This document shows positions 3,557 through 62,488 of a stretch of 64,000 bases of DNA, in pieces. Both the position numbers and the translations under genes were made by a program. Each line of letters starts with the position of its first letter. Position 1 is the first letter of the stretch. The notes under the pieces were generated by a model. The model had not been told where the DNA came from, ran no database searches, and saw only the letters and a program-made list of their open reading frames with translations. This DNA is from Candidatus Rifleibacteriota bacterium (GTDB lineage: Bacteria > Muiribacteriota > Ozemobacteria > Ozemobacterales > Ozemobacteraceae), in the NCBI GenBank assembly GCA_015232575.1, contig JADFZL010000026.1, positions 13,688 through 77,687 on the forward strand, given 5' to 3'.

Positions 3557-3602
3557 CCCTCAAAACTCCACGGTAACTCGGTAAATGGTGCGCATGCCCG
3601 TG

Positions 3603-3690
3603 CCATCTCGAACGAATGTGAGATATCTTATAAATACCAGATTTCTCCCTTCGGTCGAAATGACAAAATCAGAATTCTTGAGCTTAAGTT
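3603..3690 (+). repeat. Y-type conserved intergenic element, copy 1
   Basis: CATCTCGAACGAATGTGAGATATCTTATAAA...TTTCTCCCTTCGGTCGAAATGAC is nearly identical to 54157-54250 and to the reverse complement of 47107-47185. Confidence 0.6.
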
Positions 3691-8687: not shown

Positions 8688-11069
8688 TTACTGACTCTGC
8701 TTTGTTTTCAGAGTATCATATTCTGCTTTGGCTTTATTCATTTCCTGTGCAACTTTCTGAGCGTCTTCCTGTCTGCCTTTTGCAATCATATCATTGTAGA
8801 GTCTGTAGAGTTCCTGATATTTTGCATAAGCAATCTGGACTTCTGAAGCATAAGTTCCAACAGGTTCTATTTCACTTGATGCCGAAACCTGCACATCCTG
8901 TATGTTTGCGGTTACTGGAATTTCGCTTGATCCTGCAACTGCACCAATTCCTACACTCTGACCCGGGTCAATTGTCGACTGATTATAAGGATTTGCTCCG
9001 GTAGGAGTCGCATAAGCCTGAGCTGGAATGCTGTCTTTGCCAAACAATTGCGCAATTTTATGAGCTGCCCAGTTTCCAACATAACCACCAACGATACCAC
9101 CTATTACTGTTCCTATCGGACCCAATGCAGAACCGAGTATTGCACCGGCTGTCGAACCAATTGTCTGTCCACCAACACCTATCCAGTCGATGTGTTTGAA
9201 AGCTTCTTTAATTGAGAATTTTCCATTTTTAAGATCACCGGCAAGATATGCTCCTACTGAACCACCAACGATTGAACCGAATGTCGGAGCAAGTGCTGAG
9301 AGAATACCACCTACAACCGGTACTGCTGTAAGGAATGGAACGAAGAATGATCCGGCAGCTGCACCAGTAACTGAACCAACAACACCACCTGCAAATTCTG
9401 CCGAACAAACAGTTTTTACAGCTTTCTTAAGACTTGGCTTTTCACCATTCATCATCTGAGTAACAAGATCAACACCAACAGTTATTCCAGCTGTCATAAG
9501 AAGATTCTTGGGGCTGAAACCTGACTTTACACTATCTTTAACATTCTGGAAACCCTGGTTAGTCATTGCCTTTCCAGCTTCATAACCCTGGCGTAATTTG
9601 CTGGATGTAACTTCTTTAAAACCAGGTTTTGATGAATCGCCCTGCTGTGAAGTCTGTGCTGGAACTCCATCGTCTCCAACCTGGCCATTCTGATTGCCCT
9701 GGTTGCCCTGGTTGTTCTGATTTCCTTGATTATTCTGATTACCCTGGCCTGGGTTTACACCATCATCACCGGTGTTCTGATTATACTGATTGCCCTGACC
9801 TGATTGGTTACCTTGTCCTGACTGGTTGCCTTGGCCACTCTGATTGCCCTGTCCTGACTGGTTGCCTTGACCAGATTGATTGCCCTGTCCGCTTTGATTT
9901 CCATGACCGGATTGGTTGCCCTGTCCGACCTGGCCTGACTGATTTCCTTGTCCTGACTGATTACCCTGCCCTGACTGATTTCCCTGCCCTGACTGATTTC
10001 CCTGTCCGGGAACATAACCATCGTCACCAGCAGTTCCCTGGTTATATTGGTTTCCCTGGCCTGATTGATTACCTTGGCCAGCTTGATTACCTTGGCCAGA
10101 CTGATTTCCCTGACCTGACTGGTTGCCTTGTCCGGCTTGATTACCCTGACCACTTTGATTGCCCTGTCCGGGAACATAACCATCATCAGTTGGGGTTGTG
10201 GTTGGTTTTGGTGTCTGACTTCCACGTCCAAAAAGTCTCGCAAAACGATCTTTGGCACTCTGTAAAGCATCGCCTATTTTACTACCGGTAGATTTTGCAA
10301 CTGTCTGACCAGACTGATTACCAGAATTAAAATTATCTCTTACATTCTGACCAAAGCTGCTGGCTTTATCACTAACTGCCTGCAAACCATCTTTTCCAGC
10401 CTGGTAAGTTTTATTACCAAAATTTTGTCCGCTTTCCCTGCCAGCGGTAAAACTATCTTTGATCTGGCTTCCATAGCCGCTGAGTTCATTCTTTATGAAA
10501 GAACCGGTGCTCTGATTTCCGCTCTGTCCAACGGTTGAAACTTTGCTGTCTGCTGCTGTAACGCCCTGAGAAACCTGAGCATTTTGTGTGGACTGGTTAA
10601 CCGGAACTGTTTGGCCACCTGCATTGGCATTATTGTACTGACCAGTCTGAACAGACTGATTTCCGGGAATATTCGCTTGACCGCCTGAATGATAAGGTGT
10701 TTGAACAGTCTGATTATTAGCTACTACACCTGCGCCCGACGGCGAAGTATTTACCTGAACTGGTTTCCCTGCACTTGTAGCTGCTGTAGTAGCGGCAGTT
10801 GATCCTGCAGAGGAATCGAAAAGAAGTTTGTAGTACTGACTCATTTCGAGTGCAATAGGTTTTCCATCAACATATCTTACGTTGTAATATGTTGTCCTGG
10901 TTCCAGTTTTAACAGGAACCCACTGTCCTGGGGTAATCTGGAAACTTGTACCATCAAGATTGGCAACAGTTGTACCCTGGTACGCCATCAATGGTGTTTC
11001 AAGAAGGAACCCAGCAATCAACACGATACACAACAACCTTGAAATTAGTCGAAGATGTTTTTGTTTCAT
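8688..11069 (-). CDS. secreted protein with Q/N-rich hexapeptide tandem repeats (GNQSGQ)n, glycine-zipper hydrophobic segments and a C-terminal coiled coil
   Basis: Signal peptide (LLCIVLIAGFLLETPLMAYQG). About 180 aa of GNQ(S/A)GQ repeats punctuated by DDGYVPGQ...GNQYNQ. GxxxG-rich segments (GGVVGSVTGAAAGSFF...; IGTVIGGIVGGYVGNWAA). Terminal helical heptads. Confidence 0.75.
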   Translation of the reverse strand: MKQKHLRLISRLLCIVLIAGFLLETPLMAYQGTTVANLDGTSFQITPGQWVPVKTGTRTTYYNVRYVDGKPIALEMSQYYKLLFDSSAGSTAATTAATSAGKPVQVNTSPSGAGVVANNQTVQTPYHSGGQANIPGNQSVQTGQYNNANAGGQTVPVNQSTQNAQVSQGVTAADSKVSTVGQSGNQSTGSFIKNELSGYGSQIKDSFTAGRESGQNFGNKTYQAGKDGLQAVSDKASSFGQNVRDNFNSGNQSGQTVAKSTGSKIGDALQSAKDRFARLFGRGSQTPKPTTTPTDDGYVPGQGNQSGQGNQAGQGNQSGQGNQSGQGNQAGQGNQSGQGNQYNQGTAGDDGYVPGQGNQSGQGNQSGQGNQSGQGNQSGQVGQGNQSGHGNQSGQGNQSGQGNQSGQGNQSGQGNQSGQGNQSGQGNQYNQNTGDDGVNPGQGNQNNQGNQNNQGNQGNQNGQVGDDGVPAQTSQQGDSSKPGFKEVTSSKLRQGYEAGKAMTNQGFQNVKDSVKSGFSPKNLLMTAGITVGVDLVTQMMNGEKPSLKKAVKTVCSAEFAGGVVGSVTGAAAGSFFVPFLTAVPVVGGILSALAPTFGSIVGGSVGAYLAGDLKNGKFSIKEAFKHIDWIGVGGQTIGSTAGAILGSALGPIGTVIGGIVGGYVGNWAAHKIAQLFGKDSIPAQAYATPTGANPYNQSTIDPGQSVGIGAVAGSSEIPVTANIQDVQVSASSEIEPVGTYASEVQIAYAKYQELYRLYNDMIAKGRQEDAQKVAQEMNKAKAEYDTLKTKQSQ
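9654..10187 (-). repeat. 18-bp tandem repeat array (encodes GNQSGQ), higher-order organised into three blocks
   Basis: The period-18 repetition CTGATTGCCCTGTCCTGA / CTGGTTGCCTTGACCAGA is visible directly in the DNA. The opposite-strand ORFs here are artefacts of the repeat. Confidence 0.85.
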
Positions 11070-20401: not shown

Positions 20402-21283
20402 ATGAAAAATTGGCGTATCAGGTTATCACTTTTTTCGGCAGTCATTATTTTTTCTGTTATTTTTCTTTCTGGCTGCGGAGGCGGCGGGGGATCAGGTGGT
20501 TCAGGTGGCGGAATAGGATTATATGAGGTTCCGTTTGTGAACAAATCAGCAGCAAGAATTTCAAGCCTTGGTGTAGGATATGATATTTCGGCATCTATTC
20601 AGGAAAGAAATAACCTCAATTTTGAACTTCTGAACATGAAAACTTATCGCTCTTTTTTCACAGGCCTTGGAACTGATATAAATCAGTCCAGTTATTTTTA
20701 TCAGGGTTCACCAGGTTTTATTTATGGTTATATGTTTGATTTTCCCGGGACAACAAGCGGAAATATTAAGAATGCACTGGTAAATGATTCCAGCTACAAC
20801 ATTTCAAGCAGAGATCCAAAAAGGCTTCAACCAAATGAGACAAGAACAATATCAACAAAGATTATGGTTGGGTATCCCGGTCAGAGTCGCCCATCTGGGT
20901 TTCTGGGAATTTTTATCACCAATAGTGAATACAAAGAATGGGTTTCACTTGGAAAACGCGGAATAAGATTTTACGTAACCTGGCAGGCTTTTGATGCAAA
21001 ATCAAACAATACATACAACATAGATGCTCCGTTGGAAGCATATTTCGATTACAATCTTACAACCGATCCTTATGACGGTGAAACTGATCCTTACAGCGGT
21101 GGGACCGGCAATACCGATCCTTACAACGGCGGAACTGGCAACACCGATCCTTACAACGGTGGAACCGGCAACACTGATCCTTACAGCGGTGGAACCGGCA
21201 ACACTGATCCTTACAGCGGCGGAAACAGTGGCACTGATCCTTACGCTCCCAGTTCAGGATACACAAATCCGTATAATCAATAA
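20402..21283 (+). CDS. lipoprotein with Gly/Ser linker and C-terminal (TDPYNGGTGN)x5 decapeptide repeats
   Basis: Lipobox LSGC, then GGGGGSGGSGGG, then five near-perfect decapeptide repeats at the C-terminus. Confidence 0.7.
   Translation: MKNWRIRLSLFSAVIIFSVIFLSGCGGGGGSGGSGGGIGLYEVPFVNKSAARISSLGVGYDISASIQERNNLNFELLNMKTYRSFFTGLGTDINQSSYFYQGSPGFIYGYMFDFPGTTSGNIKNALVNDSSYNISSRDPKRLQPNETRTISTKIMVGYPGQSRPSGFLGIFITNSEYKEWVSLGKRGIRFYVTWQAFDAKSNNTYNIDAPLEAYFDYNLTTDPYDGETDPYSGGTGNTDPYNGGTGNTDPYNGGTGNTDPYSGGTGNTDPYSGGNSGTDPYAPSSGYTNPYNQ
21060..21262 (+). repeat. 30-bp tandem repeats (ACTGATCCTTACAGCGGTGGAACCGGCAAC) x about 6
   Basis: GATCCTTA recurs every 30 bp from 21086 to 21236. Confidence 0.8.
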
Positions 21284-33714: not shown

Positions 33715-35153
33715 CAGATTTATTGTCTCAGGAAGAAATTGATGCTCTATTAAGAAGTGGTGGAAGTATGGGAGGCGGAGAAGAAACAACACCGCCGCCA
33801 TCGGCTCCGCCACCCTCTTCGCCGCCTCCACCTCCAAGACAGCCCCCTGTTTCCGCTTCGCCGCGTCCGCCGCAGCAGGCGGCTTCGCAAGCATCTCATG
33901 GTGGAGCAAGCAGGTCCCCTGCAGGTTCAGATGTATCTGCAGTTCTTTCTCCTGAAGAAAAAGAAAAGCTGACAGAAGTCGCAAAGCTTTCAATGGGTGC
34001 TACATCTTCTGTTCTTCAAATGCTCCTGAACAGGCAAGTTGATCTTTCCCTTTCCCAGATGCGAATTATGACCCAGGATGACCTTGCATCTGAGTTCCAG
34101 GGAAACGATATGATAATTGCAAAAATTTCATACGTTGAAGGTTTTGCTGGAAATTCATATCTATTGCTTGAAAAACCGGTCTCAGCAATCATCGGCGACC
34201 TGATGATGGGTGGTGATGGTGCAAATCCAGAATTTCAGGAAATGCACAAATCTGCCGTCGGCGAAATGATGAACCAGATGATGGGGAAGACTACTACGAC
34301 CCTGTCAGAAATTTTTAAAAAACGTGTTGACATTAACCCACCTAACGTGGATTTAATAAATTTCCAATCAGCCCCTCCGCAGATGGAAGACTTCAAGCCT
34401 GGTGCAAAATTTCTACGAATGGGATATCATCTCAAGGTTGGTCAGGAAATAAATTCTGAGATGATTCAGCTTCTACCGCTTGATTTTGCTAAAAGCATGG
34501 CCTCTGATTTAGCTCAACCATCGAAACCAGTAGCAAAAAAGCCAGTTCCCCCACCCCCTCCAATGAGCTCTGGCGCACCTGAACAACAGCAACCAGCTCA
34601 AATGATGCCTCCTGGCGGTATGCAAGGAATGCCCGGGATGGGCGGAATGCCTGGAATGGGTGGTATGCCTGGAATGGGCGGTATGCCTGGAATGGGCGGT
34701 ATGCCCGGCATGGGAGGTATGCCTGGAATGGGTGGTATGCCCGGCATGGGCGGTATGCCTGGAATGGGTGGCATGCCTGGAATGGGCGGTATGCCCGGAA
34801 TGGGTGGCATGCCTGGAATGGGCGGTATGCCCGGAATGCAGGCGGCGAACCCCGCGGAATTTGGAATGTTTCAGATGCCAGGCGGAATTGGCCTGCAATC
34901 GAACATTGATCTTCTGCTTGATGTTCCTCTTCAAATAACAGTTGAATTGGGACGAACAAAAATGTTAATAAAAGATGTACTTGAATTAGGTATAGGTTCT
35001 GTTGTAGAGTTAAATAAATTGGCAGGTGAGGCAGTTGAAGTTCTGGTTAATAATAAACTGATTGCCAAGGGCGAAGTTGTTGTTATTGACGAGAATTTTG
35101 CCGTAAGAATAACAAGTATTGTTAATCCGCAAGATCGATTGCAGGCTATCTGA
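33711..35153 (+). CDS. fliY: flagellar motor switch protein FliY (CheY-binding peptide - CheC-like domain - FliN/SpoA domain) with Pro-rich and (MPGMGG)n inserts
   Basis: [10 protein letters not shown] at the N-terminus. CheC-like middle domain. C-terminal FliN domain ([33 protein letters not shown]). GTG start overlapping the fliM stop. Confidence 0.8.
34617..34850 (+). repeat. 18-bp tandem repeat x about 12 (ATGCCYGGNATGGGNGGN, encoding MPGMGG)
   Basis: ATGCC recurs every 18 bp from 34629 to 34827. Confidence 0.85.
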
Positions 35154-47106: not shown

Positions 47107-47185
47107 ACAACTTTGCTGTCTTTTCGACCGAAGGGAGAAATCCTGCTTTTATAAGATCTCTCACATTCGTTCGAGATGACAGCTT
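47107..47185 (-). repeat. Y-type conserved intergenic element, copy 3 (inverted orientation)
   Basis: The reverse complement reads CTGTCATCTCGAACGAATGTGAGAGATCTTATAAAAGCAGGATTTCTCCCTTCGGTCGAAAAGAC. Confidence 0.6.
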
Positions 47186-47258
47186 AATTCAAGGTTAACA
47201 GGCAAATTTGACCGCTTTATTTGAAACTGACTACTGAATAGATAAGGCAGGGTAAGCG

Positions 47259-49958: not shown

Positions 49959-50057
49959 GAAAAGAACTTGTTATTTGATGCTGATTTTTAAGATTTTCTG
50001 ATATTTTTCTAAATAAGCATTCCTGTCATTAAAAAGAAATAAATATTCTTATGTTAA

Positions 50058-50098
50058 AACTATTGGAACAAAAATACTATTTATTCTGTTTTACAAAT
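50058..50098 (+). promoter_or_regulatory. TTGGAACAAA promoter motif (copy A) upstream of the ECF sigma gene
   Basis: CTATTGGAACAAAAATACTATTTATT lies 41 nt upstream of the ATG. GGAAC is the typical ECF -35 core. Confidence 0.45.
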
Positions 50099-50110
50099 TA
50101 GAGGGGAAAA

Positions 50111-50662
50111 ATGAGCTTGGAAATAAACAAGGTAAACCCCGGAATTTTGTTAGACGAACAGTTAATAAAAGATTTTCAGAAAGGTTCTGAAGAGGCATTT
50201 GAAGTGCTCTTCGACAGATATTTTCAAAAAATCTTTTGTTATACTTTTTCTTTTTTGAAAGATCATGAAGAAGCAAAAGACTTAACGCAGGAAATATTCT
50301 ATAAATTATACAAAGGGTTGAAAACTTATCAGGAACAAGGGAAATTCAAAAGTTGGATGTATTCTGTCGCAAGACTGACAATCATTAACAGATTCAGAAA
50401 GAAGGGAAAGGAAATAGTCTCTTGTGACCAGGAACTCGTTGAGACAACAGGAATGTCCGATTCGGACAACTCTTCCGGGGGTAATGATTACTTGTCATCT
50501 CTTTCAATTGTCGAAAGAGAAATTATTTCCCTGAGAATTCTGGAAAAACTACCTTACGAAAAAATATCTGAAATTACATCCCTTTCTACCAGCTATTTGA
50601 GGAAAGTTGTTTTCAGAATATTAAATAGGTTCAGATCAGAGGTTTCAAAAAATGAAATGTAA
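50111..50662 (+). CDS. ECF-family RNA polymerase sigma factor
   Basis: Region 2 (FEVLFDRYFQKIFCYTF...DLTQEIF) and region 4 (LPYEKISEITSLSTSYLRKVVFR). Confidence 0.8.
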   Translation: MSLEINKVNPGILLDEQLIKDFQKGSEEAFEVLFDRYFQKIFCYTFSFLKDHEEAKDLTQEIFYKLYKGLKTYQEQGKFKSWMYSVARLTIINRFRKKGKEIVSCDQELVETTGMSDSDNSSGGNDYLSSLSIVEREIISLRILEKLPYEKISEITSLSTSYLRKVVFRILNRFRSEVSKNEM

Positions 50663-51623: not shown

Positions 51624-51714
51624 GAATTTTTCGACTTATTTATTGGTTAAACGCGGGTTGGAGAGTTTCTGATTAAATTGAATGCAAAATTTCAGAATAC
51701 TTTGCTTTATTAAA

Positions 51715-51775
51715 AATATTGGAACAAAAAAGCATTATTTTGCAATTTATTACTTAGGAAGTAAATTTAAAAAAT
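51715..51775 (+). promoter_or_regulatory. TTGGAACAAA promoter motif (copy B), extended 58-bp conserved block
   Basis: AAAAATATTGGAACAAAAAAGCATTATTTTGCAATTTATTACTTAGGAAGTAAATTT is near-identical to 62428-62485. Confidence 0.5.
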
Positions 51776-51793: not shown

Positions 51794-53989
51794 ATGAAAT
51801 TCTCATTCAAAGTGACTGCATTTCTTTTCTTCTCTCTTCTGATTGGCTCTGTTGGTTTCGCTGACGACCTCGGGTCGCTTCAGCAGTTGAGATTAAAAAG
51901 AAGCTGGAAACCTCTGATCGAATTATCTCAAACTGTAATTGCCCGGGAAGAAGCAAAAAAATCTGATCCTGATGCGGCAAGTGGTGATGGCATGCTTCTC
52001 CGATTTGCTTATGAAGGATTATACGAAGGACTGGTAGGCACATCAAGATTTACAGAAGCGCGTGACCTGACTGATAAAATTATTAACAGATTTACGGCAA
52101 CGAGTGAACCGAAAGTTGACACCCCAAGTTATCAGTCTTTGTGGAAATTATGGCAATATCGCGCAAAATCGTTCATTACTGTTCAGGATCAATTATTAAA
52201 AGATAAAATTACTTTTTTAAAGATGGCGCGAGATGCCTTTATCTGGCAAAATAACAACTTGAATGCCATTTTGACCAATCTGGTCAGACATAACAACAAT
52301 TTGAAATCCTTTGAATGCAGAATTCTTAATGCATCCCAGGTGATTGATATTGGAAAATCCATGGAGGGTTGGGCAAATACGATTTCAAATTACGAACAGC
52401 ATACAGACGATGTAATTTGCAACCAGAGAATCAGTTTGTTAGACAGATATGAAAAGAAGGGAATCAAATTAACTTCTGAAATGCTTGATTCTCTTGATTC
52501 TGAATCGCTGACAAAGAAGGAATATGTAGATCAGGTTCTCTTATCAAACCAGCTTATCGCAAGTTGCAGCAGCTTAATGTCTTCAAACTGGAAGTATCTG
52601 CGTGGACAAAAGTATGTTGGATTATACGTTCATGGAAAAGATTTTGAAAGACTTATTGATAATATGAATTCCAGTTTTGAAGATTTTGAAAGATTCCAGC
52701 AGATTAATGAAAAGAGAGTGTTCGCTTTGGATTTCTCCGGATCATATAAAGAATTCCAGAATCGATGCTCAATGGTTAAATTTGCAGATACGATTGCCAT
52801 ATTAAAAAATGTTCCGTTTAGTGGTTCTTCTGATGAAGGCATCAGAATTGAGAATTTACGAAGGTATATTCAGGATAATTCAGCAACCCAAGTTATTACT
52901 TTTTTTGCATCTACTGCAGCAAGAAGTCTTGGAAGCTCCCTTGAAAGCATGTTTTCCGGAATTGAGAATAAGTGGATGGCAGTATCAGGTTTTCTGAAAG
53001 CGAACTCCATACCTGGAGACATGGACTCTGACGGCCAATATTCAGACAATGACATGAAATTGTTCAGGGGCTATTTTGATTCATTTCCAATAATCCTTGC
53101 CAGTACAACAAATTCAGTCATTCACAACATGAATCTGAATGGAGACGCAATCATAAGCCTTGCGGACTATTCCCTCCTGGTGGAAGCTGTAAATGGAAAT
53201 CGCAAGTTTTTCCCGTGTGATTCTGATAACAGAATGGGAGATTTGTCCGGAAATGGTTCACTGGATGAAAATGATGTAGCAAAATTTGCCTATCTTTGCT
53301 TCAATCGCCCCTCTCCAAAGGGCGATATCTTCAGAATCATGAATATTAATAAGCGCAATGTTCCGCAGATACAAGATGTTGTTTCATTGATTGTCAGAAT
53401 GATATTTGAAAACAGTTATGCAATGGGTCGCATCATGACCGACGTGAAATACAATGGTAACAATGTGAATTTCCTTGCGGAAAAACCGGTTCTTGACGTA
53501 AATAAAGACAACAAGATATCTCTTGCTCAGGACTTTGAACTGATGATGCGTCAAGTAGCCTTTCTCTCTGGCACTCCAGTTCCAACAGGTGCGATTGGAA
53601 ATCTTAATAAAGATGAAGATCTTGGCTCTTCAGATCTGTTCCTGTTCGTGTATCATTCATGGGATCTTTTCAAATCATATTTTAAAACTGAAACACCTTT
53701 CAAATGGTTCACTTCAAATGAATATCCAAAATACCAGGCTTATATGTATGATAGATGCAAACTTCTGAATAACAGAAATATCTGCGGACACAAAAACTGT
53801 TCCAATATGTGCAAGGAAACTTTACCTGAGTTAGTTTTCAAAAGAAATGGAGGAGCCCTTGTTGTTACCTTAGCAGGCTACAAAGAACATACATCAATAT
53901 CTTCAACTACACAGGCTCCTGAAGCACCAAAACCTGCCCCTCAGAGCTCTACTCAAAACAATGGCATTGGAAGCAGTGAAGACCTCTGA
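51794..53989 (+). CDS. secreted protein with dockerin-like Ca-binding repeats
   Basis: Signal peptide. DMDSDGQYSDNDMKLF..., LNGDAIISLADYSLL..., DLSGNGSLDENDVAKF... (D-x-D/N-x-DG-x...D pattern). Confidence 0.6.
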   Translation: MKFSFKVTAFLFFSLLIGSVGFADDLGSLQQLRLKRSWKPLIELSQTVIAREEAKKSDPDAASGDGMLLRFAYEGLYEGLVGTSRFTEARDLTDKIINRFTATSEPKVDTPSYQSLWKLWQYRAKSFITVQDQLLKDKITFLKMARDAFIWQNNNLNAILTNLVRHNNNLKSFECRILNASQVIDIGKSMEGWANTISNYEQHTDDVICNQRISLLDRYEKKGIKLTSEMLDSLDSESLTKKEYVDQVLLSNQLIASCSSLMSSNWKYLRGQKYVGLYVHGKDFERLIDNMNSSFEDFERFQQINEKRVFALDFSGSYKEFQNRCSMVKFADTIAILKNVPFSGSSDEGIRIENLRRYIQDNSATQVITFFASTAARSLGSSLESMFSGIENKWMAVSGFLKANSIPGDMDSDGQYSDNDMKLFRGYFDSFPIILASTTNSVIHNMNLNGDAIISLADYSLLVEAVNGNRKFFPCDSDNRMGDLSGNGSLDENDVAKFAYLCFNRPSPKGDIFRIMNINKRNVPQIQDVVSLIVRMIFENSYAMGRIMTDVKYNGNNVNFLAEKPVLDVNKDNKISLAQDFELMMRQVAFLSGTPVPTGAIGNLNKDEDLGSSDLFLFVYHSWDLFKSYFKTETPFKWFTSNEYPKYQAYMYDRCKLLNNRNICGHKNCSNMCKETLPELVFKRNGGALVVTLAGYKEHTSISSTTQAPEAPKPAPQSSTQNNGIGSSEDL

Positions 53990-54011
53990 TTTTCAGAATT
54001 TTCTAAAAAAC

Positions 54012-54050
54012 CAGACCTGTCCAGTTTACATTCTGATCTGGACAGGTCGT
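54012..54050 (+). terminator. terminator hairpin (11-bp perfect stem GACCTGTCCAG / CTGGACAGGTC)
   Basis: Immediately after the stop codon. The T-tract is weak. Confidence 0.5.
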
Positions 54051-54156
54051 TAGATTTCTGTTTCAATATATCGTTTTTGTTAAACCGAAATTTGCCTTCT
54101 AAGTAGGCAAAATCTTAAAGAAGGAAGCAAATTTGCGTGTTAACATTTGGGTGGGC

Positions 54157-54250
54157 TGTCATCTCGAATAAATGTGAGATATCTGATAAAAGCGAGATTT
54201 CTTCCTTCAGTCGAAATGATATAGTAGAAATTCTGAAGCTTAAATGACTC
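54157..54250 (+). repeat. Y-type conserved intergenic element, copy 2
   Basis: CTGTCATCTCGAATAAATGTGAGATATCTGATAAAAGCGAGATTTCTTCCTTCAGTCGAAATGAT...GAAATTCTGAAGCTTAAATGAC. Confidence 0.6.
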
Positions 54251-54329
54251 CTTTATTAAGATTTGCTGTACAAAGGTAACTATGGGTTTGAGAGTTTATG
54301 ATTAAGTACGAGTCGGATATGGGAAAGAG

Positions 54330-57050
54330 ATGCAACAAATGATCATACGGAGCAGCATAAATGTTCTTGAATATGTAAGAGTACGTGGTATTGTTCTTCC
54401 GATTATTATTGCAATTTTCGCATGTCTCGCAACCTTTTTTTTCTCGCTTAATATGATCAGTCGCAGTCATCTTAATAAGATGCAATACCATGAAATTGAA
54501 GAAGTAGTATCCACAATTGGAAATGATGGTGCCAGATATCTTTCATACTCATTCGAAGACGTTTCACATCTTTCACCTGAAAATAAAGCTAAATTCGATA
54601 AATCATTCGGAAGTCTTTTTTCATCAAATTCACTTAGACCACAAACTATCACATCTGATCAATCAGATTTTTTAAGGGACGTAAAAATTGAGTTTCAGAG
54701 TCTGCTTGAATCATATAATTACAATTATCCCGACCGTCTTTCAAAGCTGTTTTCTCCTTTTGGAAATCACCCGGTTTGCATGAGAATGCAGTTAACCATT
54801 GAACAATCACCAAAGCTCATTCCAACAGGTTTGGTTAATAACATAAGAAATACAGTTCTTCACGAAATACTAAAATGTCCTATCAATGCAATGAATAGCG
54901 AGGAACTTCAGAAATATTCATTTGCCGCGGGAAAAGATGAAACAGAAAAAAATGGTACAATGAAATTTTCCTGCACAGTTTACTTCAGAGGTGTTGCCAG
55001 AGAAGTAACTTTGTCAAAGCAATTCAAGGTTATCAGTATGGTTCCGGGTCCATATTCCCGTTTTACCCTTTTTGCTCCCTCAACACCTGATACAGAAGCT
55101 TATAATGTTATTGAGAACACCTATGCTGGTAATTATCACAGCGATTCGTCATCATATAGCGGTCATAAGAGACTATTACTGATAAATGGAACGGATACCT
55201 TCAGTATAGGTGATGATCCACAATCGACTCTGAATTCACTTTCCAGTGATCTAATAGACTCAGCATCAATGCTTCAGAATCGAGGATGGGTTTTTCTGGG
55301 GAAGCCTCCTCAGGGATGCTTGCGATTAAATATTCCTGCTGGTTTTTTCCCACCAGATCCTGCTTTTCCCATTAATTCACTTTTTGAGGAGCATCCGTCT
55401 CAAATAAACGATGGAATTGGAGGTCAGATATACCTTACCTGGCCACAAAAGATATTAGATTCATCTTCTAATTTTAAACTGGCTGATACTCCAATCGAAA
55501 TTGATGATACCACAATATTTAATCTTGATTCAACAAAGGATGAAAAGCTGCTTTCAAGACTTCTTGGTTTTTTTGTCAAGCAGGGTTCATCCGGTGGCGC
55601 ACACGAGCTTGAACTCTGGCACAAACCAGATCCGACAAAATCTTCAGAAATGGTACCTTTACAGCGGACAGACTGTAAAACATCCTGGATTATGCCATTT
55701 GGCGATAGGCAATATATTTCACGTACCCTGCTCGTGGGTGAAGTACTCGCAAATTTTCTTCAGGTATACATGCTGAATCTTGACAAGAGTATTGCTCCGC
55801 CACAGAAAAATTATGGACTGATAAGAAGATATCTTGGAGCAGACGTTGATCGGGACTATTTTCTGCGTTTTCTGGTTCCTGATTGCTACTGGATTGGTCC
55901 CCTTCCTCCGCCAACTTATGAAAGCTTCATCAATTCGACCGTTCCACACCACCCAAAAGAAGTGCTGGATTCCATTTCTCCGAAAGTAGCACAATTTCCC
56001 CAGCAATCCTTTTGTGGAGTTCCGTTTAACCTTTTATTTGACTGTATGCAGTATTCAGACAGACCTGAATTTATCACCTGGGAAACACTTCCAAACTCGT
56101 CTGGCATTGGAAATATTTTCAACAAAAAAGCCGTTCCAGGTATTCCTGGAAATAAAGTACTAAATGAAGGCATCGGTCCAAATGATTCAACACTACTTGC
56201 ACCGAACACCTTCTGGAAAAACATTCAGCCCGACACAATTCAACTCTGGAAATCAGAGGCAGCAAACTCAATTGCACTTGGTAAAATTGATCGCTGGACA
56301 TATTATTACGGGAATCTGAGCAAACTTCATTTTAACAAATTTAACGCTTCCCCCAACGTTGCAGATAATCTGATTGAAAAATGGGGACTTTTTTCCAGAG
56401 TTACAAATATCATTGATCTGGATAATCCAGATATCCCCCCGGGAAAAGAAATGGCTTACCTGAAAGCGATGGGAATAATTGAAGATGCCGTAATGCCTTC
56501 CGGTGAAAAAGTTTATCGTCTGAACCATTCAGGAGTCTACATGTTTCTGAATAATTCCCCTGCAAGAAATCTGGTTCTGGACCGTCCAATGATATTGAAC
56601 AATTCAGCTATGTTCATTCTTCAAAGGGGAGATTTTGTTATAAAATACGGTGTACAATCACAAGAAACAGACAAAGACGGCATTCCAAAATACCTTTTTT
56701 CGTTTATTGCTCTTGATGGTCATATTCAATTGCCTCCAATTCCCGGAAAATATGCAAAACCTCTTCACGCTTATCTCGTGGCACTGAACAATTCTGTAGA
56801 TGGACACGGAGGAACCATTAAGAACTATGACGGAGCAAGCGGAAATTCCTGCCAGATCTATGTTATCGGAGGCATAGCAGCATTTACTATCGCACCATCA
56901 ACACTTGGAAGAACCATGTTTTCTGATTTTAAAGGCGGAGGGATAATATTGTACAACAGCAATTTCAACCCATGCCTGCCAGCAAATAATGAAAGATATA
57001 AGCTTATCATAGAACAGAGTGATCTTGGAATTATTGTTACAAAGGGTTGA
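54330..57050 (+). CDS. large (906 aa) N-terminally anchored protein, first gene of a second pseudopilin operon
   Basis: TM helix (VLPIIIAIFACLATFFFSL). Followed directly by two prepilin-type genes. Confidence 0.6.
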   Translation: MQQMIIRSSINVLEYVRVRGIVLPIIIAIFACLATFFFSLNMISRSHLNKMQYHEIEEVVSTIGNDGARYLSYSFEDVSHLSPENKAKFDKSFGSLFSSNSLRPQTITSDQSDFLRDVKIEFQSLLESYNYNYPDRLSKLFSPFGNHPVCMRMQLTIEQSPKLIPTGLVNNIRNTVLHEILKCPINAMNSEELQKYSFAAGKDETEKNGTMKFSCTVYFRGVAREVTLSKQFKVISMVPGPYSRFTLFAPSTPDTEAYNVIENTYAGNYHSDSSSYSGHKRLLLINGTDTFSIGDDPQSTLNSLSSDLIDSASMLQNRGWVFLGKPPQGCLRLNIPAGFFPPDPAFPINSLFEEHPSQINDGIGGQIYLTWPQKILDSSSNFKLADTPIEIDDTTIFNLDSTKDEKLLSRLLGFFVKQGSSGGAHELELWHKPDPTKSSEMVPLQRTDCKTSWIMPFGDRQYISRTLLVGEVLANFLQVYMLNLDKSIAPPQKNYGLIRRYLGADVDRDYFLRFLVPDCYWIGPLPPPTYESFINSTVPHHPKEVLDSISPKVAQFPQQSFCGVPFNLLFDCMQYSDRPEFITWETLPNSSGIGNIFNKKAVPGIPGNKVLNEGIGPNDSTLLAPNTFWKNIQPDTIQLWKSEAANSIALGKIDRWTYYYGNLSKLHFNKFNASPNVADNLIEKWGLFSRVTNIIDLDNPDIPPGKEMAYLKAMGIIEDAVMPSGEKVYRLNHSGVYMFLNNSPARNLVLDRPMILNNSAMFILQRGDFVIKYGVQSQETDKDGIPKYLFSFIALDGHIQLPPIPGKYAKPLHAYLVALNNSVDGHGGTIKNYDGASGNSCQIYVIGGIAAFTIAPSTLGRTMFSDFKGGGIILYNSNFNPCLPANNERYKLIIEQSDLGIIVTKG

Positions 57051-57057
57051 CCAGATT

Positions 57058-57561
57058 ATGAAAAAAGCTGTTACATTTGTTGAAGTTATAATAAGCATGG
57101 CAATAGTTGCAATTATTGTTTTTCCATTTCTTGATTTAATGTATTCCTCAAAAAAGAACGCCACAGGCTCAATGTGTGAGCTTCTTGCAACGCACTATTC
57201 TCATGAAATTACCGATCAGCTTGTAATGCTTGGAACATCAATTGGCTATAAAACTCTATGCAGCCAATCGAGTCTCTCAATGAAAGATCTGCTTGAAAGT
57301 CTGAATGATAAACTTCTGGAAAAAGAAAAGATGGCACGTCTTCCACTTAAAAATCTTGATGTTTCAATTCTGGTATCACCAATGGCGCGTTTCTTTGAAG
57401 AAAGAAAAATTACTGTTGAAGAAATACCGGGTAACAGACAGTTAGTAAAGGGGGATTACTTTAAAGTAGTTGTAAAAATCGGTTGGAAATTACCTTCTGT
57501 ACAATTAGACTCCAACACCAGTTACCATGAGGAAGTGGTGTTTTTGAGAAAAACCTTATGA
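57058..57561 (+). CDS. prepilin-type N-terminal cleavage/methylation domain protein (pseudopilin)
   Basis: MKKA|VTFVEVIISMAIVAIIVF: E at +5, hydrophobic helix. Confidence 0.7.
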   Translation: MKKAVTFVEVIISMAIVAIIVFPFLDLMYSSKKNATGSMCELLATHYSHEITDQLVMLGTSIGYKTLCSQSSLSMKDLLESLNDKLLEKEKMARLPLKNLDVSILVSPMARFFEERKITVEEIPGNRQLVKGDYFKVVVKIGWKLPSVQLDSNTSYHEEVVFLRKTL

Positions 57562-58316
57562 AAGCGATTAAATCTGCAAAAATTAGCGAAAATTCAGATT
57601 ACATGAAACAAAATTTATTCAGATCATTCGCTGTTGAAAACAGAGCTTTTACCATTGTTGAGCTTTGTGTAACAATATTGATTGCTGCCTCCATATTGTA
57701 TTTTACTCAAAGTTTTTTTATTTCCGGAGTTAAGCACAGTATTTCAATTACAGAATATCTTGATTCAATTGATCAGGCAAATAAACTGATCTTCTCTATC
57801 CGTCACGATCTTCTCAACTGCAAATCCGTAATAACTCCCGATGATTCCGGAAATCCTATTGAAGCACTTCTGAGCTGTGGTTCGCCAGAACTCCCATCTT
57901 CAGAAACAACGGTATATCCATCCATGCTCATAATCAGCATTGGGGACAACGCAACAATTTCATACCAGATAAACTTTCAAAAGCCTGATGTGACAGGAGT
58001 TGCAAGAATTGAAGAAGAAAAGAAAATAAGTGATAATTCGATATCCAGAAATGTAACCTGGTTTTCGGTTTCAAAAATTCGCACTTTCAAGGTTATTGTA
58101 CTGAAAAACACACATAAAATTGAAAATGTCGGTATGAATACCCGGCATCTTTATCTTGAAATGGAAGTTTGTCCAATGAAAAAATCTGGTGAAACAGATG
58201 AAGAAAATAAAAGGAAGAGTGCAAAACTTATCAATACCATTTCCCCTAATTCATTAGGTTATTCCACCTGGAATTATCATCTTCCAACCAACGGGGAAAG
58301 AATTACGACACCATAA
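57558..58316 (+). CDS. prepilin-type N-terminal cleavage/methylation domain protein (pseudopilin)
   Basis: ...NRA|FTIVELCVTILIAASILYF. The start may be ATG 57603. Confidence 0.65.
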   Translation: MKAIKSAKISENSDYMKQNLFRSFAVENRAFTIVELCVTILIAASILYFTQSFFISGVKHSISITEYLDSIDQANKLIFSIRHDLLNCKSVITPDDSGNPIEALLSCGSPELPSSETTVYPSMLIISIGDNATISYQINFQKPDVTGVARIEEEKKISDNSISRNVTWFSVSKIRTFKVIVLKNTHKIENVGMNTRHLYLEMEVCPMKKSGETDEENKRKSAKLINTISPNSLGYSTWNYHLPTNGERITTP

Positions 58317-58351
58317 TTCATACAATTCAAATAATTACCAGGAGAAAATTT

Positions 58352-58765
58352 ATGAAAATAATATTGTCAATCGTATTATCTTGTTTCATTGCTATTTCAC
58401 CACAAACTGCATCAGCAAGCACTGAGAAGAAAAATCTTTCAGAAGATTGCGATTTATTAATTCCCAATAATACCGGTGGATTAAAAAAAAGAAAAGCAAC
58501 AGAACTTTCAAAGAACAGAAAGCAAAAAGTCCAGGTTAAAACTGTTACTTCAAAAATTAAAGACCCGACAACCGGATTGATTCTTACGATAGAAAGTGTC
58601 ATTCCAATTTACTCAACAGCATCAGACACAGCAAGTATTTTTCAAAACAACGGTTCAGATGATGAAGAAAAAATATCGCCAGAAAAATCAAAACCTTGTC
58701 CATACTTTAAAATGTATTTTTACAATCAAAAATCAAGCAAAATTCTTGTTCCAGGATATAAGTAA
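58352..58765 (+). CDS. small secreted hypothetical protein
   Basis: Signal peptide MKIILSIVLSCFIAISPQTASA. Confidence 0.5.
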   Translation: MKIILSIVLSCFIAISPQTASASTEKKNLSEDCDLLIPNNTGGLKKRKATELSKNRKQKVQVKTVTSKIKDPTTGLILTIESVIPIYSTASDTASIFQNNGSDDEEKISPEKSKPCPYFKMYFYNQKSSKILVPGYK

Positions 58766-58796
58766 TTCTAACGTCGGAATCGGGGAATAATCGCTA

Positions 58797-59876
58797 ATGT
58801 TAAGAAAGATCAACGAAGCAACTTCAGAAGAGAAAATTAAGATTATCAATTCTCTTGAAAAAGACCAGCCCGATGTTGGAATCATTCTGACAGATCTGTT
58901 AAATTCTGCAACCATTGAAAATGCAGTTAAATGTGAGATTCTTAAAGTAGCAGAGAAACTTGGATATTCAAACTTGGTTCCCTGGGCAAAAAACAATGTT
59001 GATTCAACAGACAATTCATTGAAATTTTCCTGTCTGAACTATCTTGCTTGTTATTCCCAATATGACGCAATGCTGACTCTCTACGGTTTTTTAACATCAT
59101 CTGACAATAATAATATCGATATTTCAAAAAGGATTTTATCAATAACCAAATCCAGAAAAATTGTTTCACAGATTTCAGAATTTTTTAATTCTTTTGATGA
59201 CGAAAAACATACTATTGCAAAACTTCTTCTCACAAATCTGGATTTTTCAGATATGAATTTTTGTGAAATTCTTATTGAAGAGTTTTTAAAACAACCTTCA
59301 ACTGACTTTTTTGTTGAAATTCAAATCTTTATGAGAAATCTCAAAATTCAGGATAGATCCAGACTGCTAAACAAACTTGCAGAAGTACCTTCTTTTCCAA
59401 TAAGTAGTGAGGCTCTTCTTTTTAGACACAAACTCATTTCCGACTTCAAGTGCGAAACCTTTCCAGTTGATTCTCCCGCTGAAACGCAAATACGTGAAGT
59501 CTCGAATTCAAAGAAAAACATCTCTCATACTTCAAATATAGCTGCCATTTCTGCAATCATTGTATTAGCAATCATAATTCTTCGCGTTTCTTTTTCGGAG
59601 AACCCAGATCAAAAAGTTTCCAGAAATTATTCCTATCAATTTTCAGAAATCACTTCCAAACCAGTCAAAATGGAAGGAACAGTTGTTGAATACCGCAATC
59701 AGTCAGGTTTATATCTAATTCACATGGAAAAAGGAGGCAACCTCCTTCTTCAGGTTCCCGAACCCATTTCAAAAGGAATACTGTTGCCCCGTGAAAAAAT
59801 TATCTTTTATTTTACTCCGATAAGAGTAAACTCAGAGGGAATAACCATTGCAAAATGTACCAGTGTTTCCTGGTAA
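58797..59876 (+). CDS. hypothetical single-pass membrane protein (helical N-domain, TM, C-terminal beta-rich domain)
   Basis: TM helix IAAISAIIVLAIIIL near aa 240. Confidence 0.5.
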   Translation: MLRKINEATSEEKIKIINSLEKDQPDVGIILTDLLNSATIENAVKCEILKVAEKLGYSNLVPWAKNNVDSTDNSLKFSCLNYLACYSQYDAMLTLYGFLTSSDNNNIDISKRILSITKSRKIVSQISEFFNSFDDEKHTIAKLLLTNLDFSDMNFCEILIEEFLKQPSTDFFVEIQIFMRNLKIQDRSRLLNKLAEVPSFPISSEALLFRHKLISDFKCETFPVDSPAETQIREVSNSKKNISHTSNIAAISAIIVLAIIILRVSFSENPDQKVSRNYSYQFSEITSKPVKMEGTVVEYRNQSGLYLIHMEKGGNLLLQVPEPISKGILLPREKIIFYFTPIRVNSEGITIAKCTSVSW

Positions 59877-59923
59877 AATCATTTTCAATTAATTTATGGG
59901 CTTGTTGTACAATTACATTATCG

Positions 59924-59949
59924 TTAGTCCAAAGACCTTGTGGACGTTT
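59924..59949 (+). repeat. 26-bp direct repeat, left copy (TTAGTCCAAAGACCTTGTGGACGTTT)
   Basis: 24/26 identical to 60827-60852. Confidence 0.8.
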
Positions 59950-60826
59950 GTTAGTATTACGAAATGTGTCAATCTTTTTGAGACAGTTCAAGAAAAAAAT
60001 TCAGGGCAATATCCTGACTGAATAAAGACCTATTCTCCAGATACTTACTTCGCCTCTTGTCGTCATGGACGCCAAAAGCTTACCCTTTTCTATACGAAAT
60101 TTTTTTCTTACTGCCCTCACCTTCGACGAACAGTACGGAATCCTGAATCTGAGGAATGCAAAAGGAGCACCCAATAAACTGACCGATCTTTTCCGCCTCC
60201 CCTTCCTTTTCTTTGAAGTGCTGGCGGCGAAATGCGTGTGACAATTCATACATCGTTCCGTCCTGCCAAACGGCAACGAGACGGTATGCCCAATATGTTC
60301 CGTATCGACCGCTGATCTTTTCCCCCTGGAATCCAAGGCCCAATATGCCTTCAAAGGGCTTGAAGGATAGCTCTCTGGAAAAGCCCCTGAATGAAATAAT
60401 CCCGTAAATGCCTTTGCGTTTCTGGTCAATACAGACATCATCCCGAGCAAAATTCCTGAGAAAGATCAGCAGAATTCCCATTCCCATTACCAAGTGTCCG
60501 AGAGGCGCCCACCACCGGTCGAAAGACGAGGTGTGGGGCATCACGCTCATCAGATAACAATACCCACTGACCCCCAAGACGAGCCAGGGAAGGACAAGCA
60601 GGATTCCCAGACGATGATATCCAAAGCCTATCGTCATTCTGCCTCTGGCTGAATCGAGATGAATTTCTGTCTGAGGTAATACGGTCATCATGATAACATC
60701 CTCCTGAAAATACTCTCCGGTTATACTGCTAGACTTGCAGAACTCACTACAACTTTGATAATTACCCCATTATCAGACAAGTTTTACCTGTTTCGTTTAG
60801 ATCATATTTGTTTTTTAAAATTATCA
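59950..60826. mobile_element. GC-rich (about 50%) 0.9-kb islet bounded by 26-bp direct repeats; candidate horizontally acquired cassette
   Basis: Base composition contrasts sharply with flanks of 35% GC or less. Contains a single gene. No recombinase gene present. Confidence 0.4.
60080..60691 (-). CDS. hypothetical membrane protein (2 TM + soluble domain) within the GC-rich islet
   Basis: 203-aa ORF with GC-rich codon usage. Helices LGILLVLPWLVLGVSGYCYLM and LGHLVMGMGILLIFL. Confidence 0.6.
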   Translation of the reverse strand: MMTVLPQTEIHLDSARGRMTIGFGYHRLGILLVLPWLVLGVSGYCYLMSVMPHTSSFDRWWAPLGHLVMGMGILLIFLRNFARDDVCIDQKRKGIYGIISFRGFSRELSFKPFEGILGLGFQGEKISGRYGTYWAYRLVAVWQDGTMYELSHAFRRQHFKEKEGEAEKIGQFIGCSFCIPQIQDSVLFVEGEGSKKKISYRKG

Positions 60827-60852
60827 TTAGTTCAGAGACCTTGTGGACGTTT
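60827..60852 (+). repeat. 26-bp direct repeat, right copy (TTAGTTCAGAGACCTTGTGGACGTTT)
   Basis: See left copy. Confidence 0.8.
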
Positions 60853-60991
60853 ATACGTTCAGGCTGAAAGTTGCATCTTTTCATGGTGCATCAGGATTAT
60901 CAATGGTCACAACACCTCCTTTTGCATTTTGAGCAGCTTCGGCCTATTTGTGCAATACAGGCATGTCTGAGATTAGACTGTTTTTTCGAAA

Positions 60992-61531
60992 TCACTTTTC
61001 AATATTCACTTCTTTTATTGAGTGTAACATGAAATAGAAATCCAGATATTCATCTTTTACGACTTCTATAATTGCCTTAACCTTTAATTCGGAAAACTTT
61101 CCTGCGTCTTTTGCTTTCTCACCTTTTCGGCCAATATAAGGCTTCAACGCATTGTAAACAAACCATCCCTGATCGCTTCTGAAAGGACCTTGATCGCTAC
61201 GCAATAAACAATCAATTTCTTTCGCATTAGCCTGAAGATATTTCATCGCTTCTAAATCGGGTTTATTTTGCTTTGAAAAACCTGGAACAGGAACACTTTG
61301 CATTGAAACGACTTCGCCTGTTATCCGCTTAACAATTTTAGAGATTGAATAAGCAGAATCGGTTGAATTAAATAGATTGTTACTGATAGCACATTTAACA
61401 TCGGTAATTCTCATAATGACTTCAAAGTAGCTTGTCAGATTGCTTTCTGCATAGCTGATACCATTAATTAGCAACAGTCCAATCACAACCAACGAAACCA
61501 TAACACTTTGGAATTTCTGTCCAGTAAGCAT
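60992..61531 (-). CDS. secreted hypothetical protein
   Basis: Signal peptide (VMVSLVVIGLLLINGISYA). Confidence 0.55.
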   Translation of the reverse strand: MLTGQKFQSVMVSLVVIGLLLINGISYAESNLTSYFEVIMRITDVKCAISNNLFNSTDSAYSISKIVKRITGEVVSMQSVPVPGFSKQNKPDLEAMKYLQANAKEIDCLLRSDQGPFRSDQGWFVYNALKPYIGRKGEKAKDAGKFSELKVKAIIEVVKDEYLDFYFMLHSIKEVNIEK

Positions 61532-61579: not shown

Positions 61580-61605
61580 ATTTTTTGGATTTGTTCCAAT
61601 TTATT
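61580..61605 (-). promoter_or_regulatory. TTGGAACAAA promoter motif (copy D, minus strand)
   Basis: Minus-strand AAATTGGAACAAATCC lies about 60 nt upstream of ATG 61531. Confidence 0.4.
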
Positions 61606-61850
61606 TTCTTTTTTATTTTGTCCATCGTACAAAGTCATAAATTTCTTCAAACAAATAGGAATGGATGAAAGAAAGCCCAGCGAATCTGCCGACTTCTACA
61701 TTGTCAATATCGCCGGAGTCAAAAAGCTGCCTGGCTTTTTGCTTACTGATTTTTTCCTCGGCTTATGCCAAGTCAACCTGATTCAACCTGATCGGTGATC
61801 TTTAATTTGTTTTCTAATATCATAGGGCACCTCCTTCAATCTCCGCAATA

Positions 61851-62375
61851 GTGATGTCAATATCGGTTGATTGCTATATGTTCATCGGTGAGAAGTTGTT
61901 ATTCGGAAAAAATCTGCCTGAGCTACTCTTTTTAGAGAACCCACTTGATTTTTATTCTATTTTTTGTGCCAAATTTGTGATAAATCCACGCGAGCTTGAT
62001 TGCACAATTTATTTACTCGTTGATTTAGTAGAGCTCGTTTCAGCGGAAGTCGGACGTCTCTGCGGAACAATCTTAAACTTCCGCATTTTGTACAGACCAG
62101 AATGGGAATTTTCTTTCCCTCCTGCACCGGAACAGGAATTCTCGAAGTTTGATACAAAAACATTCGAATTCAAAGAAATTCTTTGCCTCTGCCGGGACTT
62201 AAAAAGCCGTAACATCGTGCCCTCTTCATTGGACAGCGCCAGCGTCATGCAAAAGAACCATGAAGGTTACCCTGAGTCCCATTTAAGTGATTGGCGGTTG
62301 TCAAAGAATCGCTGCAGTGACTTTTTCAGACAACCCTTAAACTGCTGGTTTTGGTGCCTGCAGGGGATGACATAA
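61851..62375 (+). CDS. hypothetical protein (weak)
   Basis: 174-aa ORF with no recognisable features. Competing antisense ORFs exist. Confidence 0.3.
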   Translation: MMSISVDCYMFIGEKLLFGKNLPELLFLENPLDFYSIFCAKFVINPRELDCTIYLLVDLVELVSAEVGRLCGTILNFRILYRPEWEFSFPPAPEQEFSKFDTKTFEFKEILCLCRDLKSRNIVPSSLDSASVMQKNHEGYPESHLSDWRLSKNRCSDFFRQPLNCWFWCLQGMT

Positions 62376-62427
62376 TTTCATGGGCTATTGTACCGCAGAA
62401 AAAAACTTACAAAATAAATAAAATAAA

Positions 62428-62488
62428 AATATTGGAACAAAAAGGAGTATTTTTGCAATTTATTAGGTAGGAAGTAAATTTTCTAATG
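62428..62488 (+). promoter_or_regulatory. TTGGAACAAA promoter motif (copy C), extended 58-bp conserved block
   Basis: AAAAATATTGGAACAAAAAGGAGTATTTTTGCAATTTATTAGGTAGGAAGTAAATTT. Confidence 0.5.

Follow-up and report, generated by a model that had tools for sequence, protein, structure and literature searches.

A GC-rich single-gene islet between imperfect 33-nt direct repeats in the chromosome of a Candidatus Riflebacteria bacterium

Gene content and composition of the locus

The locus described here lies in a 64-kb stretch of DNA (the window) from the metagenome-assembled genome of a 'Candidatus Riflebacteria bacterium'. The DNA of the window, which averages 0.392 GC, is that of an ordinary chromosome. 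It encodes MutS, UvrC, a transketolase/DXS-like enzyme, FliM/FliN, amidases, DnaJ, an ECF sigma factor and B12-radical-SAM enzymes, with a local GC skew that tracks gene orientation. Two direct repeats at 59917-59949 and 60820-60852 bracket one gene on the minus strand (HQM10_25115, 60080-60691), hereafter the cargo gene, which encodes a 203-aa membrane protein. Two native genes that converge on each other flank this islet, which occupies the spacer between them. The left neighbour (HQM10_25110, 58797-59876, plus strand, GC3 0.283) encodes 359 amino acids and carries a terminator-like hairpin at 59858-59875, while the right neighbour (HQM10_25120, 60992-61531, minus strand, GC3 0.322) encodes 179 amino acids and is preceded by a GGAAC promoter-like repeat. 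The same repeat, TTGGAACAAAA, is common to the 179-aa, 341-aa, ECF sigma factor and 731-aa genes and is missing from the cargo gene. In-silico removal of one repeat copy together with the intervening DNA leaves a spacer of approximately 210 bp between the neighbours; a spacer between convergent genes is a neutral place for an insertion.

All three proteins are sparsely represented in sequence collections. Matches at 100% to the cargo and to both neighbour proteins were limited to the NCBI entries HQM10_25110, HQM10_25115 and HQM10_25120, and the 359-aa and 179-aa proteins returned only themselves from a search of 5.8 billion protein clusters. For the upstream 906-aa gene, a search of 185,579 species genomes revealed no related locus.

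An earlier note on this DNA had described the islet as GC-rich, at about 50%. GC content is indeed raised between the repeats, at 0.448 compared to 0.334 and 0.361 in the 1-kb flanks, but it does not reach 50% and the excess is confined to the cargo ORF, which has a GC content of 0.485 with 100-nt windows of up to 0.54-0.60. The non-coding DNA within the repeats is host-like, with GC contents of 0.385 and 0.336 that make it as AT-rich as the intergenic DNA of the host. Because the excess is restricted to the ORF, the anomaly is the gene and not the whole interval. Codon-usage statistics, which the earlier note had proposed as a check on its claim of GC-rich codons, bear that claim out: the cargo GC3 of 0.549 compares with a mean of 0.335 (sd 0.05) for 48 ORFs in the window (z = 5.4), while GC1 and GC2 are ordinary. 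In addition, the codon-bias distance of the cargo gene from the pooled genes is 0.424, the second highest of the 48 and well outside the 0.21-0.33 of ORFs of similar length. These results show that the cargo gene is compositionally foreign. Elsewhere in the window, GC bumps at 9-11 kb and 32-35 kb correspond to native genes with tandem 9- and 18-nt coding repeats.

The interval between the repeats also contains a set of expression signals, all on the minus strand. A Shine-Dalgarno motif, AGGAGG, can be read from the sequence at 60700-60705, 8 nt upstream of the cargo ATG (60691), and is separated from the right-hand repeat by a leader of about 120 nt. Inside that repeat, at 60820-60847 and approximately 130 nt upstream of the ATG, a promoter scan found a sigma-70-like match of the form TCCACA-16 nt-GATAAT, and the same promoter-like match occurs within the left-hand repeat (59944-59917). 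At the other end of the gene, a terminator-like hairpin, TCAGG-ATATTGC-CCTGA followed by a T-run, lies 63 nt past the stop codon (59994-60017). Since promoter-like site, Shine-Dalgarno motif, ORF and terminator all fall within the repeats, these motifs together predict a complete transcription unit between them, and thus a self-contained islet. The promoter match should be taken as a lead only, because the two sites found in 59700-61100, both of them within the repeats, do not exceed the 3.2 +/- 2.1 obtained from shuffled sequences.

The cargo protein and its relatives

The 203-aa ORF is a real gene, since relatives exist at 48% and 33% identity. A word-indexed protein search with the cargo matched only the protein itself, and an exhaustive HMMER search of 1.84 billion cluster representatives (50% identity) recovered 15 proteins at E <= 0.001. 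The best of these are P0002 (48% identity, E 1e-45) and P0003 (33% identity, E 2e-24). About a dozen weaker relatives, located on contigs of 1-2.5 kb, have the motif G.K...KYG.YW.YR.VAV..G....S.WRR in common. The cargo had no family match in Pfam, NCBIfam, PHROGs or PADLOC; a profile search of PDB sequences gave nothing below E 0.19, comparison with a viral fold library nothing below E 0.02, and tblastn against plasmid and phage records no match. The cargo therefore defines a very rare, unannotated bacterial protein family. With respect to genomic context, P0002 adjoins a ccdA/ccdB toxin-antitoxin pair and P0003 adjoins a divergent XRE-type regulator, and neither of these two usable loci has comparable flanking repeats; an alignment of the 15 sequences proved too diverged to serve for finding loci.

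The earlier note had recognised a single gene for a protein with two transmembrane segments, and this description held. A confident structure model of the cargo places transmembrane helices at residues 29-50 and 56-79, forming a two-helix hairpin that is followed by a PH-like beta domain, so that the cargo is predicted to be a membrane-anchored PH-like protein. The closest fold to the model is EROS/CYBC1. EROS and Ycf4 have been linked as membrane chaperones, and the modelled cargo would have both the transmembrane hairpin and the PH-like domain fold in common with EROS/Ycf4-like membrane PH-domain proteins. In contrast to EROS/CYBC1 and the Ycf4-type chaperones, the cargo is bacterial, shows only about 10% sequence identity to them and has no Pfam family in common with them. 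An assignment to the EROS/Ycf4-like proteins as a sequence family failed in the Pfam, NCBIfam and PDB profile searches described above. The model thus suggests that the transmembrane hairpin and PH-domain architecture of the eukaryotic chaperone EROS also occurs in a rare bacterial family.

The 33-nt direct repeats

The 26-bp direct repeats reported by the earlier note are present where it had placed them, and they extend a further 7 nt to the left, giving repeats of 33 nt. Copy 1 (59917-59949, the left, attL-like junction in the reading discussed below) reads ATTATCGTTAGTCCAAAGACCTTGTGGACGTTT and copy 2 (60820-60852, the right, attR-like junction) reads ATTATCATTAGTTCAGAGACCTTGTGGACGTTT. The repeats are imperfect, with 30/33 positions identical and a start-to-start distance of 903 nt, and their consensus is ATTATC[G/A]TTAGT[C/T]CA[A/G]AGACCTTGTGGACGTTT. 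All three mismatches lie within the left 16 nt, and the longest exact common run is the remaining 17 nt, AGACCTTGTGGACGTTT. The 26-mer matched twice in the window compared to an expectation of 0 from 100 shuffles. Beyond these two copies the best match to the 33-mer in the 64-kb window was 21/33, so that a degenerate third copy is absent, and we found no match to exact or codon-degenerate patterns of it in collections of genomes, metagenomes and viral contigs. Similarly, blastn comparison of the non-coding parts of the islet with the rest of the window and with the loci of the relatives returned only chance-level words.

Relative to the stop codons of their neighbouring genes, copy 1 is 41 nt and copy 2 140 nt further on, copy 1 beginning 32 nt past the terminator tail of the 359-aa gene. 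The 17-nt identical block opens with AGACCTT, which is situated between the imperfect inverted hexamers GTCCAA and GTGGAC. Inverted symmetry within the 33-mer amounts either to the 5-nt pair GTCCA/TGGAC, 9 nt apart, or to an imperfect 8-3-8 palindrome, GTCCAAAG-ACC-TTGTGGAC, that is degraded in copy 2. The inverted symmetry of the putative core is weak; by our estimate a 5-nt pair would arise by chance in a 33-mer with a probability of about 0.15. Beyond the repeats themselves, in-register identity over the 40 nt on each side was 16/40 and 15/40, compared to a null value of 10.6 +/- 2.9. On the plus strand, both copies encode the peptide LSLVQRPCGRL, as parts of small ORFs at 59855-60025 and 60755-60970. 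In this frame the three mismatches are synonymous third-position transitions, and together with the first difference after the repeat they are spaced by multiples of 3.

We also considered whether the repeats could mark where an RNA gene ends. Searches with ARAGORN and with Rfam at its gathering thresholds detected no tRNA, tmRNA or Rfam RNA in the window, and lowering the Rfam threshold to E <= 10 revealed nothing credible as an RNA-gene integration target. In addition, the predicted RNA folds of the adjoining spacers were not better than those of shuffled sequences (z +0.34 and -1.10), and we rejected this candidate on the basis of these results.

Possible origins of the islet

A Pfam scan that covered the islet and 45 large ORFs of the window detected no integrase or transposase, in agreement with the earlier note, which had proposed a non-autonomous insertion such as a cassette or an Xer-mobilised element. 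A foreign gene, repeats not attributable to chance around one transcription unit and the lack of a mobility gene together make a non-autonomous or decayed insertion the best-supported general reading, whereas the cassette and Xer mechanisms received no support. More specifically, we tentatively favour the view that the repeats are attL/attR-type junctions of a horizontally acquired integrative element, either non-autonomous or decayed. A single-gene unit of approximately 0.9 kb with its promoter-like site, ribosome-binding site, ORF and terminator would have been acquired horizontally and inserted into the ~210-bp spacer between the two convergent native genes, leaving the 33-bp imperfect direct repeats as the junctions of the insertion. 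One repeat copy would then represent mostly the chromosomal site and the other mostly incoming DNA, with the crossover taking place within the 17-nt identical block, in the manner of attB x attP giving attL and attR. We infer both that the repeats are recombination junctions and that they were produced by a conservative site-specific recombinase. Since no recombinase is encoded, the islet would either have been integrated in trans as a cassette, by a recombinase supplied from elsewhere, or be what is left of a larger integrative element that has lost its integrase, similar to a CIME.

Several observations are consistent with the att-type reading. What the repeat pair encloses is precisely the single gene of foreign composition, and linking the pair to the insertion event is therefore economical. 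The accessory character of the neighbourhood, described below, also fits. Moreover, the copies differ at 3/33 positions while the cargo GC3 is still unameliorated, which argues for two separate origins (attB-like and attP-like) rather than for a duplication that has diverged, and the mismatches are all on one side of the 17-nt block, as would be expected for a crossover in that block. The arrangement of AGACCTT between inverted hexamers would also correspond to the layout of a tyrosine-recombinase core, albeit with weak symmetry. Against this, no empty site, circular junction or second instance was found in the collections searched, the 64-kb window contains no integrase, and the site is at neither an RNA gene nor the 3' end of a gene. 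The AT-rich, host-like composition of the non-coding DNA within the repeats and the lack of comparable repeats around the closest relatives also count against it, and the positions of the mismatches equally fit a promoter spacer or synonymous third codon positions.

Among described elements, the islet most invites comparison with CIMEs (cis-mobilizable elements), which are decayed ICEs or IMEs that keep attL and attR and lack the genes for integration and transfer (PMC5704250). Like a CIME, the islet is foreign DNA between imperfect direct repeats of att size, and it contains cargo only, a single ORF with no integration or transfer genes. Unlike CIMEs, it is much smaller, at 0.9 kb and one gene, and it is found neither at the 3' end of a tRNA gene nor at that of a protein gene, the usual locations of CIMEs. 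The viral, metagenome and genome collections yielded no cognate integrase-bearing element and no matching att site, and assignment of the islet to the CIMEs is thus incomplete. Nevertheless, under the att-type reading the islet resembles a scar left by an integrated element that was small or has decayed, and scars of this kind are known.

The main rival explanation, which we consider unlikely, is that the 33-mer is a promoter, perhaps overlapped by a palindromic operator, that has been kept by its function and is not a recombination scar. Transcription would run leftward, from copy 2 into the cargo mRNA and from copy 1 into a short antisense RNA against the 3' end of the 359-aa gene, and the foreign gene would have come by another route or by a short-homology, Campbell-type crossover through the common element. 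What gives this explanation its standing are the mismatches, all three of which fall in the 16-nt promoter spacer and leave both hexamers intact, the 8-3-8 palindrome, which is of the type bound by dimeric regulators, and the slightly raised flanking identity, which could be the trace of a longer, old duplication with a constrained core. Consistent with it, the minus strands of the two copies provide the sole sigma-70-like matches in 59700-61100, copy 2 lies about 130 nt upstream of the cargo ATG, and the window contains another promoter-like intergenic repeat family. However, the promoter scan did no better than shuffles (2 found, 3.2 expected), the palindrome is degraded in copy 2, and only two copies are present in 64 kb. 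Copy 1, in addition, faces the 3' end of a convergent gene and has no ORF or structured RNA to transcribe, and the bracketing of exactly one foreign gene is left unexplained. A promoter or operator function need not exclude recombination through the same element.

The repeats could alternatively be a long target duplication, produced by a non-site-specific insertion, for example through staggered breaks or repair synthesis, and later diverged at three positions. Direct repeats immediately around an insertion in a neutral convergent spacer, with no recombinase in the window, would fit such an event, which we nevertheless regard as improbable. Target duplications are usually 2-15 bp, we know of no transposition system that gives one of 33 bp, and no terminal inverted repeats are present just inside the direct repeats. 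A neutral duplicate with 9% divergence would also sit uneasily with a cargo GC3 that remains 5 sd away from the host value. The lack of inverted repeats along the inner margins of the direct repeats, together with the 33-bp length that a duplication would need, likewise led us to reject an insertion sequence, MITE or transposon with a passenger gene. A non-autonomous element of the IS200/IS605 type (PATE), for which similar subterminal hairpins in the same orientation would be expected at both ends, was rejected as well: the only candidate is the 5-bp stem of copy 1, which is mismatched in copy 2 and missing from the minimum-energy fold of that copy.

We consider it very unlikely that the islet is an integron-type cassette, with the repeats as attC sites, or the product of XerCD integration at a dif-like site (IMEX), the two mechanisms named in the earlier note. 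Like integron cassettes, the islet is a non-autonomous single ORF, and about 0.9 kb with one ORF between similar short sequences is a typical cassette size; ccdA/ccdB-type toxin-antitoxin pairs are common in cassette arrays, and the closest cargo relative, P0002, adjoins one. Like IMEX, it has no recombinase of its own and is bounded by a pair of ~30-bp direct repeats, and its position at a point where gene orientations converge would also fit this explanation. However, an attC site is an imperfect palindrome of about 57-141 nt (R''-L''/L'-R') that folds as single-stranded DNA, and when 111 nt around each repeat were folded as single DNA strands in either orientation the energies were only -10.2 to -6.0 kcal/mol, no better than those of shuffles (z -1.65 to -0.16). 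The R' core GTTRRRY is absent from both copies, as copy 1 reads GTTAGTC, with T where R is required, and copy 2 reads ATTAGTT, in which GTT is lost. No IntI or other tyrosine recombinase was found among the Pfam matches of the 45 large window ORFs, there are two repeat copies only and no further attC-like repeats that would form an array, and, unlike a cassette gene, the cargo comes with a promoter-like site and a terminator. An IMEX repeat of about 28-30 bp has inverted arms of about 11 bp around a 6-8-bp centre, and the dif consensus has 11-6-11 arms with ATAA/TTAT inner arms; the 33-mer shows neither this architecture nor these inner arms, and its inverted symmetry is limited to the 5-nt pair or the imperfect 8-3-8 palindrome. 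A cassette hypothesis of a different kind, which we regard as improbable, is that the 33-mer is the recombination site of an undescribed, integron-independent cassette system in Riflebacteria, in which individual self-expressed genes of about 1 kb would be inserted and excised in trans by a chromosomal recombinase and the sites would double as promoters.

The synonymous, third-position mismatches spaced by multiples of 3 raise the further idea that the repeat is a coding remnant, derived either from paralogous small genes or from a gene end duplicated at integration, both copies encoding LSLVQRPCGRL. We attach very little weight to it, as three mismatches would fall in the same codon phase by chance in about 1/9 of cases. 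Neither small ORF has a ribosome-binding site, the left one runs into the terminal part of the 359-aa gene, a codon-degenerate pattern of the peptide had no match in the metagenome and viral collections, and similarity beyond the 11 residues is negligible. Least credible of all is an artefact in the form of a chimeric join in the contig. A metagenome-assembled source and an insert unlike its surroundings in composition would fit such a join, but a chimera would require that one repeat occur at either end and would have had to place a precise and complete gene unit in an intergenic spacer. The 17-nt exact run is also shorter than the k-mers usually employed in de Bruijn assembly, which makes a chimera unlikely.

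If the repeats are true att-type junctions, as we tentatively propose, few site-specific insertions without an integrase that have been described outside integrons would be as small as the islet, and its source would be a phylum whose mobile elements are almost undocumented. The 33-mer would in that case offer an entry point to the responsible recombinase elsewhere in the genome.

The wider neighbourhood of the islet contains further acquired DNA. The divergent 179-aa and 341-aa genes have between them, 1 kb to the right of the islet, a Fic gene that is truncated and frameshifted (~61822-61620, minus strand) and corresponds to residues 8-68 of the Fic structure 5nv5 (E 5e-20). Adjoining this pseudogene is a 174-aa ORF (61851-62375) whose codon usage deviates more than that of any other ORF in the window, with a GC3 of 0.474 and a codon-bias distance of 0.459. 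The Fic pseudogene and this second codon-usage outlier place the islet in a small patch of acquired, partly decaying accessory DNA, where acquired sequence is interleaved with native lineage-specific genes. On present evidence the islet is a single and ordinary-looking member of that patch.

A promoter-like repeat around the islet

A 58-nt intergenic repeat containing TTGGAACAAAA occurs at 50055-50112, 51711-51768 and 62424-62481, with an inverted partial copy at 61590-61619, the copies being 66-88% identical to the reference copy. Copies of this repeat lie upstream of the gene for an ECF sigma factor itself (50111), a 731-aa gene and a 341-aa gene, and the inverted copy lies upstream of the 179-aa gene that flanks the islet on the right. 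ECF-type promoters carry GGAAC at -35, and the repeat looks like a promoter of this type, which would place lineage-specific genes around the islet in one small regulon.

To the left of the islet, plus-strand genes of 731, 906, 180, 252, 137 and 359 aa run from 51794 to 59876. No family could be detected for these genes, the one exception being a weak prepilin N-methylation motif in the product of the 180-aa gene; the 359-aa gene has no relatives in the protein database and the 906-aa gene none in the species-genome collection. Under the ECF promoter-like repeat, these genes may form a pilus- or secretion-like cluster specific to the lineage.

A Fic remnant and a codon-usage outlier right of the islet

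On the minus strand at 61620-61822 we identified a truncated and frameshifted Fic (AMP-transferase) pseudogene, which matches residues 8-68 of the Fic structure 5nv5 (E 5e-20) and lacks the catalytic part. It reads MILENKLKITDQVESG*, followed by a 49-residue continuation in a different frame, and it stops at the point where the 179-aa gene's promoter-like repeat starts. The remnant forms a divergent pair with a plus-strand 174-aa ORF (61851-62375), which has the window's most deviant codon usage (GC3 0.474, codon-bias distance 0.459) and no match in Pfam, NCBIfam, PHROGs, PADLOC or PDB sequences. This ORF could be another gene of foreign origin, or one in decay. Both members of the pair lie together between the arms of an inverted repeat of 30 nt (61590-61619 and 62412-62441).

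Islet repeats and relatives of the cargo gene

Comparison of 59917-59950 with 60820-60853 showed that the three mismatches between the 33-bp direct repeats bounding the islet, together with the first subsequent difference, are spaced by 6, 3 and 18 nt. Read in the plus-strand frame encoding LSLVQRPCGRL, all four are synonymous transitions; the three mismatches also fall within the spacer of a minus-strand promoter-like match, and the differences are too few to choose between the coding-frame and promoter-spacer readings.

The cargo, the membrane-protein gene inside the islet, has two closest relatives. One adjoins a ccdA/ccdB toxin-antitoxin pair on a Hainich aquifer contig (L001, 603-1162), and the other adjoins a divergent XRE-family HTH gene (L002, 386-601). 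These neighbours hint that the cargo family is carried along with accessory or mobile DNA.

Other repeats in the window

A further intergenic repeat of 87-92 nt is present in three copies in the 64-kb window (3601-3687, 47119-47210, which is inverted, and 54128-54243). The copies are 80-89% identical, contain internal hairpin-like segments and gave no match in Rfam; they may be REP-like or MITE-like elements or else encode a structured RNA. Long tandem coding repeats (9/18-nt and 30-nt periods) occur at 9690-10200, 34580-34870 and 21046-21274, within ORFs of 793 aa, 480 aa (FliN/CheC-like) and 293 aa respectively, and those at 9690-10200 and 34580-34870 account for the window's other GC-rich bumps.
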